Shown: positions 4,525-62,464 of the stretch, in pieces
Position numbering within the stretch: position 1 is the stretch's first letter
Layout of the letters: each line of letters opens with the position of its first letter
Assembly: GCA_002717365.1 (NCBI GenBank)
Contig: PBDJ01000034.1
Location: forward strand, 33,990 to 97,989
Reading direction: 5' to 3'
DNA from: Acidimicrobiaceae bacterium
Lineage (GTDB): Bacteria; Actinomycetota; Acidimicrobiia; Acidimicrobiales; MedAcidi-G1
DNA: 64,000 bases
Notes under the pieces: model-generated
Told to the model about the DNA's origin: nothing
The model's database searches: none
What the model saw: the letters and a program-made list of their open reading frames with translations, nothing else
Program-made: the position numbers and the translations under genes

Positions 4525-5969
4525 ACGTCGAGGCCATTGCCCCGGAGACCGTCCCCGGCTGGGAGACAGTCATCGGCCTGGAGGTCCATGCGGAACTGGC
4601 CACGGCCACCAAACTGTTCAGTTCGGCCCCCAACCGGTTTGGTGGTCAGCCCAACACCAACGTCGACCCAGTGTCCCTCGGCCTGCCGGGCTCGCTGCCC
4701 GTACTCAACGAGCAGGCGGTGGAGTTGGCCATCCGGGTCGGCCTAGCCCTGAATTGCCAGGTCCAGCGGTCAGTGTTCTCCCGTAAGAACTACTTCTACC
4801 CAGACATGCCGAAGGACTTCCAGATCTCCCAGTACGACCTCCCGATCAACGGGGAGGGCTGGCTAGAGCTGCCCGATGGGCACCGGGTGGGCATCGAGCG
4901 GGCCCACCTTGAGGAGGACACGGGCAAAAGCACCCACGTAGGTGGGGGAGGTCGGATCCACGAGGCCGGATACTCGCTAGTCGACTACAACCGGGCCGGC
5001 GTTCCACTCATCGAGATCGTCGGTGCCCCGGACTTACGCTCGGCTGAGGAGGCTCGATCCTACGTAGCCGAATTGCGGGCCATCCTGGTGACCATTGGCG
5101 CCTCTGACGGGAAGATGGAGGAGGGCTCGATGCGGGTGGACTGCAACGTGTCGGTCCGCCCCGTCGGGCAGGCCGAGTTCGGGACCCGTTGTGAGATCAA
5201 GAACATCAACTCGCTGCGGTCCCTCGGGCGGGCCATCAGTTACGAAGCTCGTCGGCAGGTCGACTTGATCACCTCCGGAGAGAGAGTCGAACAGCAGACC
5301 CGCCACTGGAACGAGGACGAGGGCCGGACCCACAAACTGCGGTCCAAGGAGGAAGCCTACGACTATCGGTACTTCCCGGAGCCTGATCTGGTCCCGGTGG
5401 AACCGTCCGACGAGTGGATCGACGCCATCCGGGCTGCCCTTCCCATGCTTCCTCGGGAACGCCGTCTCCGCCTGGCCGAGGCGGCCAGTATCGACACTTC
5501 GGCAGCCGCCCTAACTGTGGAGCGGGGGTTGGACGACCTAGCCGTGGATGCCATCGCCGAGGGAGCCGATGCTCCCCGGGTCTTAGTCCACGCTGAGAAC
5601 AACCTGGCCGACGGTGCGGGGAGACTAGATGGTGCCTCGTTTGCCGCTCTGGTCAAGATGGAGACCGGTGGAGACCTGACGGCCACCCAGACCAAGACGG
5701 TGCTGGCCACTCTGGTGGCTGAAGGGGGAGAGCCGGCGATCGTGGCCGCCGATCTGGGCTTCGAGGCCATGGACATCGGAGAGATGGAGGTCCTTGTGGA
5801 CCGCCTAATCGCCGAGCACCCGGACGACTGGACGGCCTTCATCTCGGGCGACGAGCAGGAACGGAAGAAGAAGTCTGGCTTCTTCGTCGGTCAGGTTATG
5901 AAGGCCACCAACGGGAAGGCCGACGGTCGGGCCGTCAACGAGTTGCTGGCCCACCGAGCCCGTTCCTAG
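4521..5969 (+). CDS. gatB: Asp/Glu-tRNA amidotransferase subunit B
   Basis: [30 protein letters not shown] and AHLEEDTGK are typical of GatB. GTGA overlap with gatA. Confidence 0.95.
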
Positions 5970-9108: not shown

Positions 9109-9663
9109 TCAGGACCCGTCCCACAACCCGAAGGAACGGGCAGCGGAGAGCATGGTCCACGGCTCGGTTGCGGCGGCTGCCGTGGATGACTGCCGGGCCA
9201 CCCACCGAGGAACTTCGAGCAGCACCTCCAGGGGTACCTCCAGGCCATCTCGGGGGGCCACGGCACAGGTCGGGAGGCGAGATAGAGCCTTGGCCATAGC
9301 CGCCCCGTCCTCGTAGAACGAGGGGTCGTGAAGTTGATGCCACTTGTCAGCTCCCATGACCACCACGTCGTAGTCGTCGGCCAGGTCGGCAACAAGTCGG
9401 GCGTCGACCACGTTGACCGCTAGCCAGGCATGGTCGATGGCCACCCGGTCGAGCACTGTCCGGCGTTCTTCCACGGTGGTCCGGCCTCGTTCTTTGCCCA
9501 GCGGGTGGCGAGACAGTGTCCAGACCACACGATCCAGACTGTGGCGACGTCGGGCGGTGTCGGCCACGGTCAGGTGGGCCAGCGTCGGAGGATCAAATGA
9601 CCCCGGGTAGACACCTTGTCGCACGGCCCCATGGTGGTCGACGGGCACGTAATGGCGGGGCAC
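9109..9663 (-). CDS. cytidylyl/adenylyltransferase-fold protein (NadD-like nucleotidyltransferase)
   Basis: GSFDPPTLAHL resembles the (H/T)xGH nucleotidyltransferase motif, and there is a C-terminal SST motif. Substrate unknown. Confidence 0.6.
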   Translation of the reverse strand: MPRHYVPVDHHGAVRQGVYPGSFDPPTLAHLTVADTARRRHSLDRVVWTLSRHPLGKERGRTTVEERRTVLDRVAIDHAWLAVNVVDARLVADLADDYDVVVMGADKWHQLHDPSFYEDGAAMAKALSRLPTCAVAPRDGLEVPLEVLLEVPRWVARQSSTAAAATEPWTMLSAARSFGLWDGS

Positions 9664-17143: not shown

Positions 17144-17593
17144 ATGTTGGAAGTTGGAACACCAGCTCCGGACTTCGCAGTGCCCGACCAAGACGGCAAG
17201 GTGGTCACCATGGAATCTCTGCGGGGTCACTGGGTGGCCCTGTGGTGGTACCCGATGGCCTCCACCCCCGGTTGAACGGTCCAGGGAGGGGGGTTCCGTG
17301 ACCGAACCCCGGAGTTCGAGGAGGCTGGCGCCGTGGTGCTGGGTGCGAGTTTCGACACCGTCGATGCACAGAAGCACTTCGCCGACGACCAGGGGTTTCC
17401 GTATCGCCTGTTAGCCGACACCACTAAGGAGGTCGGGCAGGCCTATGAAGTGGAGGCCGAACACGGCTTACCGTTGCGGGTTACGTATCTGATCGACCCG
17501 GAGGGCACCATCGTCCGGACCTACGATCTACGTGGCGAGGATCTGGAGGCTCACGCTGGTGTCGTCTTGGACGACATTCGAACCCTGTCCTGA
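17144..17593 (+). CDS. bcp: Bcp-type peroxiredoxin with in-frame TGA (17273-17275) at the peroxidatic Cys position; candidate selenoprotein (U44)
   Basis: ATG 17144 is in frame with track ORF 17333-17593. Translation is MLEVGTPAPDFAVPDQDGKVVTMESLRGHWVALWWYPMASTPG-TGA-TVQGGGFRDRTPEFEEAGAVVLGASFD..., matching the Bcp pattern YP..TPG[C]T....FRD. A hairpin lies downstream of the TGA. Confidence 0.75.
17290..17310 (+). promoter_or_regulatory. SECIS-like hairpin downstream of the bcp UGA
   Basis: GGGGUUC-CGUGACC-GAACCCC is a perfect 7-bp stem starting 15 nt after the UGA, with a GU dinucleotide in the apical loop at +26/+27. Confidence 0.5.
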
Positions 17594-18848: not shown

Positions 18849-19901
18849 TCAGGCGCCCCAGGTCACCAACCGCCAGTCCAGGACGGGTCGGGGAGGGTCT
18901 TCGCCCTCTTGGGCGTCAGCTTCGACCCGGATGGCTCGGAGCCGTCCCCCGGCTGCCGACCGCTCGTCGAGCAGCGTGTGGTGAAAGCTCAGGACGTCCT
19001 TCTCGAAAACTGGCGCAAGATGGTCACAGGTCTGCCACCCGAGCACGGTGGCCGTGTCGGGAAACATGCGGGTTAGGGAGGCCTGGGCCAGACCGATGGT
19101 GTGGCCGCCGTAGACGAGGCGCCGGCCGTCCGGGCCGAGCGCCGGGTCACGGTGCACGGGTGCCTGGTTGAGGGTGAGGCGGGCTAGGGCTACGGCATTA
19201 GTTACCGTGTCTCTCAGACCGTCGGTCCGTTGGGTCCCGACGTTCCAGTCCGACACGGAGACACCGGCGAGGGGGCTGGCGTCCCAGCCGACAGGGACGC
19301 GGTCGACCCAGGCCGCTAGGTCGATTTCGGCCTCTATCTCTCCTAGGTCGTCGTGGTGGTCGGTGACGGCATCGGGATCCCGGAACCGGAGCATTGCGCA
19401 CCGTTCGTAGTCGGCCACCGTGGCGTTGTCGTCCACCCGAATCGTGTGGATGCCGAGCAGAGCGAGGCCCCGGGCTGGGCGGTCGTCGCGGCGTGACAAC
19501 TCGAGGAGACCCCGAATCTCAACGGTGGTTCGGAGGGTCTCACCGTGGCGGACCGGTTGGTGCAGGACCACGCCGCGGTAGAAAAGGTTGGCAAAGACCT
19601 GCCGAGTGGCGACCGTGCTCTGTCCGATTGACACATGGAGGACGAGAGCCGGGTTGACCAGAGAGCCGGGCTGGCCGGTCACCGCCTCGGCCAGAGGCCG
19701 GCTGGCAGTCGTGGCCAGCGGATCGCCGCAGATTGCCTGGTAGATAGCGGCTTCGCCGGGGCCAATGGTGACGGCCGGAGCGGGGTCCAGAGTCTGGCCA
19801 ACAGCCAGGTCGTCGAAGTAGGGCCCGAGGTCGTGGTGCTCGGGGGCGAGGGCGGGGGTGGGATCGGGCACTGCGACACTCTGGCAGCAACTAGCGGCCA
19901 T
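18849..19901 (-). CDS. MaoC-family double hot-dog (enoyl/methylfumaryl/itaconyl-CoA hydratase-like) protein
   Basis: 350 aa. The size and the two hot-dog-like halves (FANLFYRGVVLHQPVRHGETL; YGGHTIGLAQASL) resemble mesaconyl/itaconyl-CoA hydratase-type proteins. Convergent with a CoA-transferase. Confidence 0.7.
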   Translation of the reverse strand: MAASCCQSVAVPDPTPALAPEHHDLGPYFDDLAVGQTLDPAPAVTIGPGEAAIYQAICGDPLATTASRPLAEAVTGQPGSLVNPALVLHVSIGQSTVATRQVFANLFYRGVVLHQPVRHGETLRTTVEIRGLLELSRRDDRPARGLALLGIHTIRVDDNATVADYERCAMLRFRDPDAVTDHHDDLGEIEAEIDLAAWVDRVPVGWDASPLAGVSVSDWNVGTQRTDGLRDTVTNAVALARLTLNQAPVHRDPALGPDGRRLVYGGHTIGLAQASLTRMFPDTATVLGWQTCDHLAPVFEKDVLSFHHTLLDERSAAGGRLRAIRVEADAQEGEDPPRPVLDWRLVTWGA

Positions 19902-31307: not shown

Positions 31308-32225
31308 TCAGACAGAGTTGCCGTGGCGGGCGTCGACCGTGGCCACCATGCCGTCGCGCCACGCCACGGTGCACGGTCCAGTCAGTGATCGTCGACGGGT
31401 TGGGTCCGCTGCGCTGCCCGGCTGGCTGCCTGGTAGGTCGTAGTACGTGAGTTGCGGTTCGACGTCTAGGTGTTCTCCGAATAGGGCGCACCACTGCTCG
31501 GGAGTGACCACCTCGTCGCCGCACCAGTTCACGATGGTGGCCGGCGCCGCTGCAGCATCCAGGAGGGGCATCACCTGGGTGGCTAGGTCGTCCTCGTGGA
31601 TCGGACTGTAGGGGCCATCAACGGGATTGCGCAGCCAGACCGCCTTTCCGGTGGCCACCGCGTCGCCGTGGTAGGCGGGTAGGCCACCGTTGGGTCCGTA
31701 ACTGGCGTTGATGCGGGCGATGGTGGTGGGTAGGCCCAGAACCCGGGCCATGGTCCGAGCCACGGCTTCTTGGGAGACCTTGGAAACTCCGTAAGTGGGG
31801 CTGTGGGGTGCTCGGGGGTTGCCCAGTGGGTCGGTCTCCGTGTAAAGGTGCAACGGGTCCTCATGGGCCCGGTACACGGAGTTGGTCGATGCGATGAGGG
31901 CCGCCTCGGCGGACCGGCAGTGAGCCATGAGTAGGCCGGTGGCCTCGGCGTTGGCCCTCAGCGCCCGGTCGTGGTCGTCCTCGGCTCCCTGCCAGGCGGC
32001 AAAGTGCACGAGATGGGTGAAGTTGGTCGGCAGGTCCCCAAAGTCGCCGGTGGCTAGGTCTGCGACGTAGGGGCGGACGCCGATTCCCTCGGCCCGTTCC
32101 CGACTGCCGTCGGCCGAGTAGCGGGCCACCCCCCACACCTCGTTGTCCCGGGCCAGGAACCTGGCAACTGGGTGACCGATCTGACCAGTTAGACCGGTTA
32201 CGAGGATCCTGCGATCGGATAGCAC
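31308..32225 (-). CDS. NAD-dependent epimerase/dehydratase family protein
   Basis: RILVTGLTGQIGHPVARFL (GxxGxxG) and YGVSK (YxxxK). GTG 32225 lies 11 nt after the upstream gene stop. The rest of the 478-aa track ORF is out-of-frame overlap. Confidence 0.8.
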   Translation of the reverse strand: MLSDRRILVTGLTGQIGHPVARFLARDNEVWGVARYSADGSRERAEGIGVRPYVADLATGDFGDLPTNFTHLVHFAAWQGAEDDHDRALRANAEATGLLMAHCRSAEAALIASTNSVYRAHEDPLHLYTETDPLGNPRAPHSPTYGVSKVSQEAVARTMARVLGLPTTIARINASYGPNGGLPAYHGDAVATGKAVWLRNPVDGPYSPIHEDDLATQVMPLLDAAAAPATIVNWCGDEVVTPEQWCALFGEHLDVEPQLTYYDLPGSQPGSAADPTRRRSLTGPCTVAWRDGMVATVDARHGNSV

Positions 32226-32235
32226 GGTACCGACG

Positions 32236-33171
32236 CTAGGACGGGTTCGGCAGACGAGTGACACCCAGGGCGAATTCGCCGGCCGCAGCGTAGAAGAGCC
32301 ACCGTTCCTCTCCATCGTCGAACACGAACGGATCCCGGAGTCCATTCTGGGGTTGGAAAGCTGGCCCCCGGACAGTTGGTTCCACCGGCCGGTCGGCGCC
32401 CTCCCAGGGTTCCACCGGGCGGAGAACCTCGACTGGGTCAGTCGGTGTCCAGGTTGTCCAGTCGCCCCGGAGATCGACCTGAGCCTCCAGGATCCGCTCC
32501 GGGGCGTCGCCAGCCCTCGTGAACCAGATCCGGAGGTGGTGCCCCTCGACCAGCACGCCACTGTGTCGGATCTCGGGGTCGTCGAACAAAGCTGGCCCGT
32601 ACTCGTAGCCCGTGACCCCGTCGGCCGACCGGACCAGCTGGGACGGCATGGACAGCCCGTACCACCATCCGTCCCAGGTGAAGCTCCGGTGGTAGGAGGG
32701 TGAGATGGCCGGCCCATCGGCCAATGGGGTGAACCGTCTCCCATCAGAGGAGGTGGCCACCAGGGTGTGCTGGTCGTAGACCGGATAGATGCCCCACGAC
32801 GGCAGGTGGCCCGCGGACTCTGGTGACGCGTGGCCGTGGAAGGTCATCCGGAGGGTGCGGCCGGCGTCGTCAACCTGCACGTCGGGCGACGCCACATGGC
32901 GGTTGGGGTGGTCGACGGGCAGGGCTGGCGCCGCGTCATCCATGTGGAGGACGTCGGTCGACACGAGGCGCCAAGGGCCAGTCGGGTGCTCGGCGGCGGC
33001 CAGTCGGATTGACGCCCCGCGGTGGTGGGCGAAGTAGAGGAGGTAGGTGCCCGGAGGATTGGGGAGCCAGGTCGGGCAGCGCAGCACCGACGGACCTTGC
33101 ACGTTGAAGTCACCATGCTCGGTCGGCACGCCTTCCAAGCCTGTGGGGACAACCACCTGTCGTTCGGTCAC
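32236..33171 (-). CDS. hypothetical protein; possibly a beta-propeller, glycoside-hydrolase-like fold (weak)
   Basis: GGAGG RBS 4 nt before GTG 33171. The upstream 237 codons of the 548-aa track ORF are antisense to the SDR at 33239-34021. No catalytic motif recognised. Confidence 0.45.
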   Translation of the reverse strand: MTERQVVVPTGLEGVPTEHGDFNVQGPSVLRCPTWLPNPPGTYLLYFAHHRGASIRLAAAEHPTGPWRLVSTDVLHMDDAAPALPVDHPNRHVASPDVQVDDAGRTLRMTFHGHASPESAGHLPSWGIYPVYDQHTLVATSSDGRRFTPLADGPAISPSYHRSFTWDGWWYGLSMPSQLVRSADGVTGYEYGPALFDDPEIRHSGVLVEGHHLRIWFTRAGDAPERILEAQVDLRGDWTTWTPTDPVEVLRPVEPWEGADRPVEPTVRGPAFQPQNGLRDPFVFDDGEERWLFYAAAGEFALGVTRLPNPS

Positions 33172-33238
33172 CGCGCCTCCCGGGCAGTGGGCAGGGACGG
33201 TGGGGAAGTACCGTCGGCCCGACCGTACGGGAGGGGGC

Positions 33239-34021
33239 ATGACCATGCTGGATCGAGATGGGGTTGCCGCGCTGTACGACCTGACCGGCCGGGTGGCCGT
33301 GGTGACGGGTGGCAGCCGAGGTATCGGTCGGGCGGTGGCTGAGGCCTTTGCCGCCCAGGGCGCCTCGGTGGTGGTGGCCAGCCGCAAGGCCGAGGCTTGC
33401 GACGAGGCAGTAGCCGCTATACGAGCCGTCGGTGGCGAGGCGCTCGCCGTACCGACCCATGTAGGCAACCTGGATGACCTGCAGCGTCTGGCTGATTCGG
33501 CGGCTAGCGAGTATGACGGCATCGACATCCTGATCAACAACGCCGCTAACCCGGTAGCCCAGCCCATTGGGGGGATCACGGCTGAGGCCTTTGCCAAGTC
33601 GTTTGAGGTGAACGTACGGGGGCCGCTTTTCTTGTTCCAGGCCTGCCTGCCCCACCTACTGACCTCCGACCACGCCTCGGTGGTGAACGTAATCTCGGCT
33701 GGGGCCTTCCTGAGTACTCCAGGAGTCTCGATGTACGGGGCCGGTAAGGCGGCCCTCCTGTCATTCACCCGGTCCATGGCCGCCGAGTACGCAACCCGGG
33801 GGATCCGGATCAACGCCTTGGCTCCCGGAGCTACCGACACCACCATGGTTCGCAACACCGGACCGGAGGCGTCGGCCTCCATGGCCCGGGCCAGCCACCT
33901 GAAGCGTCTCGCCGACCCGGACGAGATGGTGGGGGCAGTTCTCTACATGGCTTCGGACGCCGGGAGTTTTATGACCGGCCAGTGCCTTACTGTCGACGGA
34001 GGGATGGTCCCCGCCCGGTGA
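33239..34021 (+). CDS. SDR oxidoreductase
   Basis: VAVVTGGSRGIGRA, NNAA and YGAGKAA. GGGAGGGGG RBS before ATG 33239. Confidence 0.85.
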   Translation: MTMLDRDGVAALYDLTGRVAVVTGGSRGIGRAVAEAFAAQGASVVVASRKAEACDEAVAAIRAVGGEALAVPTHVGNLDDLQRLADSAASEYDGIDILINNAANPVAQPIGGITAEAFAKSFEVNVRGPLFLFQACLPHLLTSDHASVVNVISAGAFLSTPGVSMYGAGKAALLSFTRSMAAEYATRGIRINALAPGATDTTMVRNTGPEASASMARASHLKRLADPDEMVGAVLYMASDAGSFMTGQCLTVDGGMVPAR

Positions 34022-58885: not shown

Positions 58886-60289
58886 TCAGTCCAGGTCGGC
58901 CGGCGTAGCGAATGTGCCGGCGATGGCCGTGGCGGCGGCGACGGCCGGAGAGACGAGGTGGGTGCGCCCGCCCCGACCCTGCCGGCCCTCGAAGTTCCGG
59001 TTGCTAGTACTGGCGCAACGTTCGCCGGCCGTGAGCTTGTCGGGGTTCATGGCCAGGCACATGGAGCACCCGGGCTCCCGCCAATCGAAGCCGGCAGCGG
59101 TGAACATCTCGGGGAGGCCCTCGGCCTCGGCCTGGGCCTTGACTGCCCAGGAGCCAGGGACAACCAACGTGCGTATCCCGTCGGCCACCTGGCGGCCGTC
59201 GGCTACCTCAGCAGCGGCCCGCAGGTCCTCGATGCGGCTGTTCGTACATGAGCCGATGAACACGGTGTCGACGGCCACGTCACGGATTGGGGTCCCGACG
59301 GCCAGCCCCATGTAGTCCAGGGCCCGCTGGGCTGCCTCGGCCTGGCTGGGGTCAGCGAACGATCGGGGATCGGGCACGGTGCCGTCCATACGCATGACCT
59401 GACCGGGGTTGGTGCCCCAAGACACGTGAGGGACGATGTCTGCGCCATCTAGGACGACTTCCTGATCGAACACGGCATCGCTGTCGGTAGCCAGACTCCT
59501 CCAGTCGTTTACCGCGACGTCCCAGTCGGTGCCCGACGGAGCGTGGGGGCGACCGGCCAGGTATTCGAAGGTGGTGTCGTCGGGGGCGATCAGACCGGCC
59601 TTGGCTCCGGCCTCGATGGACATGTTGCAGACGGTCATCCGGCCTTCCATTGAGAGGTTGCGGATTACTTCGCCCCGGTACTCGATGATCGAGCCGATCC
59701 CGCCGCCCGTGCCCAGGCGGCCCACGATCGCCAGGATCACGTCCTTGGCCGTGGAGCCCTCGGGGAGGGTGCCGTCCACGGTGACGGCCAGAGTGCCCGG
59801 TACCTGCTGGGGCAGAGTCTGGGTGGCCAGAACGTGTTCCACTTCGCTGGTACCGATGCCGAAGGCCAGCGCTCCGAACGCCCCGTGGGTGCTGGTGTGG
59901 CTGTCGCCACACACCACGGTCATGCCGGGCAGGGTCAGGCCTTTCTCAGGGCCGATGACGTGCACGATGCCCTGTCCCGGATCTCCCATCGGGTAGAGCG
60001 GAACGTCGAACTCCTCGCAGTTGGTCCGTAGGGCCTCGACCTGGGCGCGGCTGACCGGGTCGGCAATGGGCTGGTCAATGTCGACCGTGGGAACGTTGTG
60101 GTCCTCGGTGGCCACCGTCAACTCCGGATGGCGGACCCGCCGTCCGGCCGTGCGGAGACCGTCGAAGGCCTGTGGAGAGGTGACCTCGTGGACCAGGTGC
60201 AGGTCGATGAACAGCAGGTCGGGCTGGCCGTCGGCCGACCGCACTACGTGGCGGTCCCAGACCTTTTGGCTCAGGGTCTTCCCGGACAT
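58886..60289 (-). CDS. leuC: 3-isopropylmalate dehydratase large subunit
   Basis: [21 protein letters not shown], and [11 protein letters not shown] as the aconitase-family Fe-S ligand region. GAGGAG RBS. Confidence 0.95.
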
Positions 60290-60362
60290 CGGGACTCCTC
60301 GTAGGGGTTGGGTCAGGACAGGATACGGGGTCGGCCGCTGGGGCCGCCCGCGCCGGCGGTGG

Positions 60363-60944
60363 TTAAGTGCCCATCGCCCGGGCGGCCTGAATCAGGTCGT
60401 CATAACCACCCGGTCCCGGGTCACCGGTTCGGGAGGCCACCGAGCCACTCGCGGTGACCACGGCCATGCCCGGTGTCCCGAAGACATCGAAGAGGATCCC
60501 CACCCGCCCGTCGTCAGCAATGTGTGAGAACCCGGTGATTCCCCATTCCTGGAGGATGGATGCTGACCACTCCGGGTCAGCGTCCGGGCCGATGGTGGAC
60601 ACTCCGACGACCGTGATGTCCGGTCGGCGGCTGAGCTCGGCGACCGCCGAGGCCTCTCTACGGCACGTCGCTCAGGTAGGAGTCCAGAACCAGAACAGGA
60701 CGTCCTGGCCGGCCAGATCAGCACCGTGGAGCATGTCGCCGCCAATCAGTGTCGCCTCGAACCCCAACTCGTCCGGCACCGCAGCGCCCCGTGCGTCGGC
60801 CGCTGACCCCAACTCGGAGGCGGCCGCCTCCGAGGCGGTCGTGGGGGCCGGTATTGGAACAGGGGCGGTCGTATCGACCGCGCCGCCACAGGCACCCGCC
60901 GCGAGCACCAGGACGGCCAGAAAGTCCGTCCTGATCGGGGTCAT
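60363..60944 (-). CDS. TlpA/ResA-like thiol-disulfide oxidoreductase lipoprotein with in-frame TGA (60672-60674) as first residue of the CxxC motif; candidate selenoprotein (U91, UATC)
   Basis: Track ORFs 60672-60944 and 60363-60602 are in the same frame and separated only by TGA. The joined translation is ...[43 protein letters not shown]...[16 protein letters not shown]..., which aligns with the FW..WC..C thioredoxin-fold pattern. The N-terminus is a lipoprotein signal (LAAGAC). Confidence 0.75.
60633..60656 (-). promoter_or_regulatory. SECIS-like hairpin downstream of the TlpA-like UGA
   Basis: RNA GAG(GC)CUCGGC-GGUC-GCCGAGCUC has a 6-bp perfect upper stem, a 2-nt bulge and a 3-bp lower stem. 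As I recall it, the apical loop GGUC matches the E. coli fdhF SECIS loop sequence. The loop lies at +30 to +33 from the U of UGA. Confidence 0.55.
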
Positions 60945-61016
60945 ACCACGACTCTACGGGGTACCGTCGGCGTCGTGAGCACCCGCGTCCTGATCATCTC
61001 GGCTCTGGTGTGCGGT

Positions 61017-61064
61017 ATGGCGCTACTGGTGGCCTTCACCGTGCAGGTAGTGGTGGCGCTGTGA
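61017..61064 (+). CDS. mini-ORF MALLVAFTVQVVVAL upstream of lpdA (may extend to GTG 60975, giving 29 aa)
   Basis: The stop TGA (61062-61064) overlaps the lpdA GTG start (61061-61063). The last 12 codons and the stop are identical to the second mini-ORF at 62468-62521. Confidence 0.35.
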   Translation: MALLVAFTVQVVVAL

Positions 61065-61066
61065 CC
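61025..61066 (+). repeat. 42-bp direct repeat, copy 1 (ACTGGTGGCCTTCACCGTGCAGGTAGTGGTGGCGCTGTGACC)
   Basis: Matches 62482-62523 at every base when compared by eye. Confidence 0.95.
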
Positions 61067-62464
61067 CTCCGTCACGACCTGCTGGTGGTGGGCGGTGGCC
61101 CGGCGGGGTATGCGGCGGCGCTCTACGGGGCGGCGACCGGACTTGACGTGGGCCTCGTCGAAGAGGGGCGGATTGGCGGGACCTGTCTCCACCTCGGCTG
61201 CATCCCGGCCAAGGAACTGTTAGAGACGGCCTCGGTGCTGCGCACCGTCCGGGACGCCTCCCAGTTCGGCGTGTCGACTGGTGACCACAAGCCAGTCGTG
61301 GACTTGTCGGTTAGCCAGCAGCGCAAGCAGGAGGTCATCGACAGCCTGGCCGGTGGGCTGAGTTCCCTGCTGGCCGGACGTGACGTCACCGTCTACGACG
61401 GGACGGGACGCCTTGGCGCGGACCATGTCGTCACCGTGGACGGTCCCAACGGGTCGACCGTGGTGGTTGCCGACCACATCGTTCTGGCCACCGGGTCGAC
61501 GCCCCGCACCATTCCCGGCTTCGAGGTCGATGGGACGCTGGTCGTGACCAGCGACGAGTTGCTGTCCCTGCTTGAGGTGCCGGACCGGGTAGCGGTGATC
61601 GGGGCCGGCGCCATCGGCTGTGAGTTCGCTTCGATGCTGGCCGACTATGGCTCGACGATCACCCTCCTGGAGGCCCTCCCGGAGATCCTCCCCGGTTGTG
61701 ATACCGACGTGGCCGGGGCTCTCCAACGCTCGTTTCACCGCCGTCAGATCTCCGTGCACACTGGGGTGGTCGTTCACGGCCACGACCCAGCTGGCGGCGT
61801 CACCACCGTCCGGTTCGGCAACGACGAGGCCGTCGAGGTCGACCTGGTCGTGATGGCTGTAGGCCGCCAACCCCGGGGTGATTCGGCGGGCCTAGTTGAC
61901 ACCCGAGTGGTGGTTGACGACCGAGGCTTCATCCAGGTTGACGGCCGCCTCCGAACCGGTGAGCCAGGCGTCTACGCAGTGGGAGACGTGGTGGCCACCC
62001 CGCAGTTAGCCCACGTTGGCTTCGCCGAGGGCATGTTTGTGGTGAAGGACATTCTCGGCGAAGCGCCGACTCCTCTCGACCCGACAACTGTGCCGTGGTG
62101 TATTTATAGCCACCCCGAGGTGGCGTTTGCCGGCCTGACTGAGGCAGCGGCCGTAGAGGCCGGACACGACGTGGTGGTTAGCAGCCACCGGTTCGCCGGC
62201 AATGGGCGGGCCCGAATCTTGGGCGACACAGATGGCCTGGTGAAGGTGGTGGCCGAGCGGGACTCCGCCGGTCGAGCTGGGCGGATCTTGGGGGTCCACC
62301 TAGTCGGACCGTGGGCGACTGAGCAGTTGGGACAGGGCTATCTGGCCGTCAACTGGGAGGCCACGGTGGACGAGGTAGCGGCGTTTATCCAGCCACACCC
62401 GACACTCAGCGAGATGTTTGGCGAGACGGTATTGGCCCTCACCGGCCGGGCGCTGCACGGCTAA
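61061..62464 (+). CDS. lpdA: dihydrolipoyl dehydrogenase (E3)
   Basis: DLLVVGGGPAGYAAALYGA, redox-active disulfide GGTCLHLGCIPAK, and the C-terminal HPTLSE interface motif. The GTG 61061 start is preferred. Confidence 0.9.
   Translation: MTLRHDLLVVGGGPAGYAAALYGAATGLDVGLVEEGRIGGTCLHLGCIPAKELLETASVLRTVRDASQFGVSTGDHKPVVDLSVSQQRKQEVIDSLAGGLSSLLAGRDVTVYDGTGRLGADHVVTVDGPNGSTVVVADHIVLATGSTPRTIPGFEVDGTLVVTSDELLSLLEVPDRVAVIGAGAIGCEFASMLADYGSTITLLEALPEILPGCDTDVAGALQRSFHRRQISVHTGVVVHGHDPAGGVTTVRFGNDEAVEVDLVVMAVGRQPRGDSAGLVDTRVVVDDRGFIQVDGRLRTGEPGVYAVGDVVATPQLAHVGFAEGMFVVKDILGEAPTPLDPTTVPWCIYSHPEVAFAGLTEAAAVEAGHDVVVSSHRFAGNGRARILGDTDGLVKVVAERDSAGRAGRILGVHLVGPWATEQLGQGYLAVNWEATVDEVAAFIQPHPTLSEMFGETVLALTGRALHG

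Follow-up and report, generated by a model that had tools for sequence, protein, structure and literature searches.

We analysed a 64-kb stretch of contig PBDJ01000034.1 from an Acidimicrobiaceae bacterium (the window, 64,000 nucleotides in all) and found that two open reading frame (ORF) fragments on its minus strand very probably make up one gene for an exported, lipid-anchored selenoprotein, with selenocysteine (Sec, U) predicted from sequence comparison at the position of the catalytic Cys. The gene is a new member of the "thiol-disulfide isomerase-like" UxxC selenoprotein family that was predicted from the Sargasso Sea metagenome by Zhang, Fomenko & Gladyshev in 2005 (PMC1088965). The minus-strand frame from 60944 to 60363 holds a single in-frame TGA, at 60674-60672 in the context FWFWTPT-TGA-ATC, and is otherwise open. 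Frame translation agrees with the original prediction that two same-frame ORFs are split only by this TGA, and the joined product has 90 + U + 102 = 193 residues. The first in-frame start 3' of the TGA, at 60602, is GTG and not the ATG that had been read there. Genome-wide reassignment of UGA was considered and rejected because, in this window of 67% G+C, TGA is the commonest stop among the ORFs whose composition looks coding. The features of the gene are as follows.

60672-60944 (-): ORF of 90 amino acids (aa) with an ATG start
60363-60602 (-): ORF of 79 aa
60363-60944 (-): predicted complete selenoprotein gene, 193 codons plus a TAA stop at 60365-60363
60363-60944 (-): predicted product, a DsbE/DsbF-like (TlpA-superfamily) thiol-disulfide oxidoreductase lipoprotein, from the same architecture in 13 related contigs and from PDB matches
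60888-60944 (-): putative lipoprotein signal peptide (residues 1-18) with lipobox Cys19 (60890-60888), read by eye
60672-60674 (-): in-frame UGA, predicted to encode U91, the N-terminal nucleophile of the U-A-T-C redox motif, from conservation, alignment to a Cys column and published Sec forms
60665-60663 (-): C94 of the U-A-T-C motif
60366-60773 (-): predicted thioredoxin-fold domain, about residues 58-193, from alignment to DsbF residues 10-149 and DsbE residues 3-135
60473-60471 (-): P158 of the predicted cis-Pro loop at GTP158G, invariant in an alignment of five family members (A2)

Conservation of the TGA and selection on the frame

Using the C-terminal 102 residues to scan genome and metagenome collections, we obtained eight further loci; locus L001 was taken from an earlier match. 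The TGA stands at the identical column in all 13 related contigs. Three of the loci (L002-L004) come from independent Tara and ENA assemblies in which leuC is identical to that of the window and the TGA is the same. Amino-acid identity to the window protein is 86-96% for L001 and L006-L011, and another comparison that covers L001-L004 and L006-L011 gives 91-100%. Two further relatives are considerably more distant: L012 at 41% and L005, which is the GTDB genome "Acidimicrobiales bacterium MAG-144", at 37%. The motif reads FWFW[TA]PT-TGA-ATC in the close clade, LWFWAPW-TGA-SRC in L005 and LWFWAPW-TGA-PTC in L012, the last two being the classic thioredoxin W-C-x-x-C with its first Cys replaced by U. 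Relatedness via L005 places the lineage and suggests a marine, Acidimicrobiales-like source population.

The sequence 3' of the TGA had been argued not to be in decay, and counts of synonymous and nonsynonymous differences across the TGA bear this out. We calculated the ratio of nonsynonymous to synonymous differences per site (pN/pS, Nei-Gojobori) and found values of 0.13-0.21 across the 100 codons 3' of the TGA and 0.06-0.15 across the 23 codons from the TGA to GTG 60602, against about 0.3 upstream of the TGA; the downstream frame is thus under purifying selection. The four codons that follow the TGA-adjacent GCG in L001 all differ from those of the window by synonymous changes (ACG>ACA, TGC>TGT, CGT>CGC and AGA>CGA). 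We also checked conservation of the reading frame 3' of the TGA in related genomes, and the frame is kept in every relative, including those at 37-41% identity. The C-terminal piece of L001 continues to a different 3' end, with an insertion difference near the stop.

Redox motif, fold and protein family

A family profile was built from A2 with U written as C, and it matched 353 proteins at E <= 1e-3. The best-scoring among the matches listed are mostly 170-210 residues long and carry names such as "thiol-disulfide isomerase/thioredoxin" and "redoxin family protein." The idea of an orphan family, based on one match in 5.8 G proteins, was discarded given this profile result, as the single match reflected a limit of the word index. 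All 12 full-length Cys homologues that we fetched have a lipobox (e.g., LLAACGG), a low-complexity linker and the motif LWFWAPW-C-x-x-C. Because each of the 12 carries WCxxC at the aligned position, the TGA falls in the column of the nucleophilic Cys, in line with the proposal that it replaces the first Cys of the redox motif.

Searching the profile against all PDB sequences returned Mycobacterium tuberculosis DsbF (Rv1677, 3ios; E 6.6e-38, profile positions 52-192 of 195) and DsbE/Mpt53 (Rv2878c, 1lu4; E 3.3e-27, positions 60-191), which are the best solved matches and cover the whole thioredoxin domain plus an N-terminal extension; ResA, CcmG/DsbE, StoA and TlpA followed at E 1e-13 to 1e-6. 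The window protein by itself matched DsbF at E 5.6e-15 and DsbE at E 9.1e-11. U91-A-T-C94 aligns with CPTC of DsbF, and P158 with the Q-P of both DsbF and DsbE. Like the predicted window protein, the two mycobacterial proteins are exported actinobacterial proteins, and the U-P-T-C of L012 mirrors the C-P-T-C of DsbF. They differ from the window protein in having Cys and not Sec, in low overall identity, in the Trp that precedes the catalytic residue, which is Thr in the window clade (T-U-A-T-C versus W-U-x-x-C), and in the window gene having no CcdA or DsbD neighbor. The N-terminal hydrophobic segment ends in lipobox-like sequences, read by eye as A-G-A-C19 in the window, L-A-A-C in L005 and A-T-S-C in L012, and the lipobox Cys19 is invariant in A2. 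Together with the DsbF and DsbE matches over the domain, this agrees with the lipoprotein signal and thioredoxin fold first proposed for the joined ORFs.

The window protein scored below the cut-off of every curated model tried (Pfam AhpC-TSA/Redoxin; NCBIfam TlpA, ResA and DsbE). Specifically, it reached 19.1 bits against a cut-off of 26 for AhpC-TSA, 27.3 against 123 for DsbE, 23.2 against 230 for TlpA and 16.4 against 170 for ResA, and the NCBIfam TlpA, ResA and DsbE models as a set gave 16-27 bits where their cut-offs are 123-359. Membership in the specific TlpA, ResA or CcmG equivalogs was therefore rejected, the window clade being divergent. Superfamily membership rests on the PDB and profile matches, and judged by these the nearest characterized relatives are the actinobacterial DsbE and DsbF. 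The description of the protein as TlpA/ResA-like thus holds at the level of the superfamily, while its closest relatives are DsbE/Mpt53 and DsbF. TlpA, ResA and CcmG, which serve cytochrome c maturation or act as copper-site reductases, share with the window protein the superfamily and a membrane-tethered, extracytoplasmic topology and are more distant from it than DsbE and DsbF.

A SECIS-like hairpin 3' of the TGA

The sequence just 3' of the TGA can form a hairpin resembling a Sec insertion sequence (SECIS).

60636-60651 (-): core SECIS-like hairpin CUCGGC-GGUC-GCCGAG, from covariation, local folding and rarity in the window
60656-60633 (-): extended bulged hairpin GAGGCCUCGGCGGUCGCCGAGCUC, folding locally with a GGUC tetraloop at -11.4 kcal/mol

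The GGUC loop (60645-60642) lies at +30 to +33 when the U of UGA is numbered 1. To compare this region we built an alignment (A3) of the 72 nt surrounding the TGA in the window, L009, L010, L011, L005, L012 and two Sargasso Sea reads. The GGUC loop is invariant in A3 and always lies at +30 to +33, while the stems vary: CUCGGC/GCCGAG in the window clade, CUCUGC/GCAGAG in L005 and L012, and AGCGGC/GCCGCU in read AACY01523057. Double compensatory changes occur in three of the six pairs, 97.9% of cells are paired, and the covariation score was matched by none of 500 shuffles; sliding the 3' arm by 1-3 columns left a pairing of 25-62%. Some of the compensatory changes fall at synonymous third positions (TCG>TCT with GCC>GCA), and others alter the peptide (EASAVAE to EAAAVAA) with the pairs kept. 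The lower stem differs by clade, with a bulged GC in the window clade and a continuous 8-bp stem in L005 and L012. No GGUC-capped hairpin was found at the equivalent site in the three Cys homologues with fetched DNA, which encode EAPDV, EAPEI and EAPDV. GGUC-capped hairpins of at least 6 bp number 8 in 128 kb (the window, both strands) versus 4.1 +/- 2.1 in shuffles, and from this density we estimate a chance of about 1e-3 of finding one in the 22-nt slot after a given TGA. The bulged hairpin at 60633-60656 noted in the original prediction, with its GGUC tetraloop, does fold locally, and its putative SECIS role is backed by the covariation.

The E. coli fdhF SECIS also has a GGUC apical loop, at about +22 to +25. 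Both hairpins follow the UGA closely, lie within the coding sequence and share this loop. They differ in that the window loop is about 8 nt farther from the UGA and in that the 6-bp core of the window has no bulged U.

The peptide following U-x-x-C-x-x reads E-A-(S/A)-A-V-A-(E/A) in every Sec form and E-A-P-x-(V/I) in Cys forms. The Sec-only peptide is the translation of the SECIS-like hairpin and may therefore be a protein-level marker for hidden Sec forms.

A second UGA-containing gene and the Sec machinery

A second gene in the window with UGA at the place of a redox Cys had been reported alongside the first, and we located it on the plus strand.

17144-17593 (+): Bcp/PrxQ-like gene, the other selenoprotein candidate, in which TGA 17273-17275 takes the place of the peroxidatic Cys (YPMASTPG*TVQ)

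Across the TGA, this ORF shares 36% identity with E. coli Bcp (tblastn), and a 7-bp hairpin at 17290-17310 with loop CGUGACC starts 17 nt after the UGA. It is probably a second selenoprotein gene, of the TxxU type; PMC1088965 and PMC2398784 both list Sec peroxiredoxins that have a TxxU motif. A bioRxiv preprint reports the Sec machinery genes selA, selB, selC and selD in all complete genomes of Actinomarinales, which belong to the same class, Acidimicrobiia. The second UGA gene and this report give indirect support for Sec machinery in the genome of the window. A screen for further TGA-interrupted genes based on G+C content at third codon positions was non-discriminating and was dropped.

Opposing evidence and alternative explanations

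Several results weigh against a selenoprotein. We found no tRNA-Sec, selA, selB or selD among about 40 scanned ORFs of the window, in its flanks or in the contigs of relatives; this search took in the 64-kb window, about 8 kb past its right end and about 5.5 kb past its left end (flanks reached via identical contigs, with Pfam scans of ORFs and flanks) and the fetched contigs of relatives. ARAGORN likewise predicted no tRNA in the window or in 11 loci. The stability of the hairpin compared with shuffles was not significant (z = -1.1 to -1.4), and the minimum free energy structure favors a competing fold in the 66-nt stretch, as it does in the high-GC members of the family. As folding energy is uninformative at 67% GC, the case for the hairpin rests on covariation. 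Rfam gave no match at the gathering threshold over the window or at E <= 10 over 60300-61000. Finally, the window clade has no Trp before the catalytic residue, and its chemistry may differ from that of canonical members.

Gene callers report the locus only in pieces, which would be expected of a pseudogene, that is, an ordinary Cys-type TlpA-like gene interrupted by a chance nonsense mutation or a sequencing error. In L002 only the 90-aa N-terminal piece is called (9346-9618), in L003 the 79-aa C-terminal piece (5263-5502) together with a probably spurious 112-aa antisense ORF (4801-5139), and in L001 the C-terminal piece (104-436, protein P0001); the lack of Sec machinery seen locally would also fit. 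Nevertheless, a pseudogene is extremely improbable: contigs from independent samples and assemblies, down to the relatives at 37-41% identity, share the TGA column, as do two of the 2005 Sargasso reads, downstream pN/pS is 0.06-0.21, and nowhere in the family is the frame disrupted. Nearly as hard to sustain, and very improbable in our view, is the production of two separate proteins, with a stop at the UGA giving a 90-residue lipopeptide and re-initiation at GTG 60602 giving a 79-residue protein. An in-frame GTG does exist and P0001 was called from the corresponding internal start, but no part of the gene is more constrained than the 23 codons from the TGA to the GTG, which contain the resolving Cys94 and the conserved REASAVAE, whereas a fragment from 60602 would have no active site, strand beta-1 or export signal. 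Moreover, the restart codon is not conserved, since the column of GTG 60602 (the second V of TVVGV in A2) holds Phe in L005 and Ile in L012. The downstream pN/pS and the conservation of the TGA therefore effectively exclude a pseudogene, a sequencing error and an independent, re-initiated C-terminal product.

Read-through that does not depend on SelB is improbable. Here a near-cognate or suppressor tRNA (Trp or Cys) would decode the UGA while the hairpin slows termination, giving a full-length, selenium-free protein, which would suit the unremarkable thermodynamics of the hairpin and the lack of Sec machinery genes in the parts of the genome that were searched. Against this, the recoded site is the catalytic Cys column, a hallmark of Cys/Sec pairs, and the invariant GGUC, fixed spacing and covarying stem fit a protein-recognized SECIS better than a generic roadblock. 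The window also has its second gene with UGA at a peroxidatic Cys, and the family is already catalogued as a selenoprotein family.

Relation to published selenoproteins

A 2026 review lists the family as cd02966 (TlpA-like), UxxC, along with DsbA-like and DsbG-like exported Sec oxidoreductases (PMC13188914). An exported Sec oxidoreductase, which the original prediction had considered biologically unusual, is not so, because such families, the window family and the DsbA-like and DsbG-like Sec forms among them, have appeared in lists since 2005. Of the four Sargasso reads that were published, two belong to the window family, AACY01523057 (LLWFWAPW-U-GGC-NREAAAVAAL) and AACY01075364; they share the Sec column, the GGUC-capped hairpin and its spacing with the window, and in BLASTP the reads reached E 4e-25 with L012 and E 3e-13 with the window protein. 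Each published entry is a short single read, in one case lacking the N-terminus, with no organism or genomic context, and the window clade differs from them in its T-U-A-T-C motif, being about 29% identical to the closest read. The remaining two reads (DWuTWC; SPWuGAC, with TPR-like tails) seem unrelated by eye.

To the 2005 reads, the present analysis adds a full-length lipoprotein architecture (lipobox, linker and DsbE/DsbF-like domain), placement near Acidimicrobiales via L005, a covariation-backed SECIS, the divergent T-U-A-T-C subclade and the signature peptide EA(S/A)AVA(E/A), found in Sec forms only. The Sec form is invisible in protein databases because gene callers split or drop the gene, and the one match to the joined protein among 5.8 G proteins was itself a fragment. 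The window gene leaves the current understanding of selenoproteins unchanged; it would mean that a marine actinobacterial population uses selenium outside the cytoplasm.

Proposed mechanism and function

Translation would start at ATG 60944, and UGA 60674-60672 would be decoded as selenocysteine. By analogy with E. coli fdhF, the hairpin 22-37 nt past the UGA would present its GGUC loop and recruit SelB-GTP-Sec-tRNA(Sec). The product would be a pre-lipoprotein of about 19 kDa which, from its signal sequence, is presumably exported and lipidated on Cys19, leaving a Pro/Ala/Thr-rich linker to tether the thioredoxin-fold domain to the outer face of the membrane. There, U91-A-T-C94, as the counterpart of the CxxC of mycobacterial DsbE and DsbF, may perform thiol-disulfide exchange via a selenenylsulfide. 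General selenoprotein chemistry suggests that Sec would be a faster attacking nucleophile than Cys and would resist irreversible over-oxidation in oxic sea water.

As for the direction of the reaction, analogy with relatives tips us slightly toward a reductive role, because Cys homologues in Acidimicrobiia adjoin a CcdA-like electron importer. Specifically, two of three Cys homologues (P0003 and P0064, on Acidimicrobiia-like contigs) have a DsbD_TM (CcdA-like) gene as their immediate downstream neighbor, an arrangement like that of ResA and CcmG systems. An oxidative role has nearly an even chance, and is argued because M. tuberculosis DsbE and DsbF oxidatively fold hirudin in vitro, with DsbD or the CcdA-like Rv2877c as proposed partners (PMC3853704). 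No CcdA or DsbD gene adjoins the Sec forms in the window, L005 or L012, and resB, resC, ccm and CcdA genes were absent from the scanned window ORFs and from the Pfam list of the overlapping contig L002. The Sec forms may use another redox partner, or their partner may be encoded elsewhere.

A different activity is conceivable though unlikely: since the window clade has lost the preceding Trp and has no CcdA linkage, it may no longer be of Dsb type and may instead act in oxic sea water as a surface-tethered selenol peroxidase or scavenger, or as a reductant for extracytoplasmic repair. If true, a lipoprotein selenoenzyme of a monoderm actinobacterium would have an activity that is new for such enzymes.

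Genomic context

On the same strand as the predicted selenoprotein gene, and 73 nt beyond its end, comes leuC-leuD, and no terminator-like site separates the two; a promoter and terminator scan of 60200-61200 found nothing. Divergent from the predicted selenoprotein gene, at 61061-62464 (+), is a gene for a pyridine-nucleotide disulfide oxidoreductase (Pyr_redox_2 + Pyr_redox_dim); in L002 a lipoate-related gene comes after it. L010 has the same arrangement as the window. The arrangement is not shared by L005, where the neighbors are HlyIII and Ada/AlkA-type genes, or by L012, where they are a P-type ATPase and an HMA protein.

An 83-codon ORF at 60941-61192 (-), whose TGA overlaps the ATG of the selenoprotein gene (ATGA), was rejected as probably spurious, given that Pfam returned no match to it, that its GC pattern does not look coding and that the oxidoreductase gene on the opposite strand overlaps it with its 5' end. 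Elsewhere in the window, ORFs 18849-19901 (-), of 350 aa, and 32236-33882 (-), of 548 aa, had no Pfam match at E <= 1e-5; the latter shares sequence with 31308-32744, which is read in another frame, and could be a shadow ORF.

In L012 (8-2239), the Sec gene is downstream of the heavy-metal P-type ATPase and HMA-domain protein genes. This metal context recalls a TlpA-type role in copper-site maturation and is not conserved in the other loci. The pairing of a Cys homologue with a DsbD_TM gene is located at 5596-6492 in L017 and 5632-6585 in L019. Disulfide-oxidoreductase-like genes also occur within a few kb of these two Cys homologues (L017 2660-3940; L019 218-1600), in neighborhoods that further hold ECF sigma and anti-sigma (zf-HC2) genes and a glutaredoxin. 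The oxidoreductase genes may mark a loose redox-stress neighborhood, or their proximity may be coincidence.

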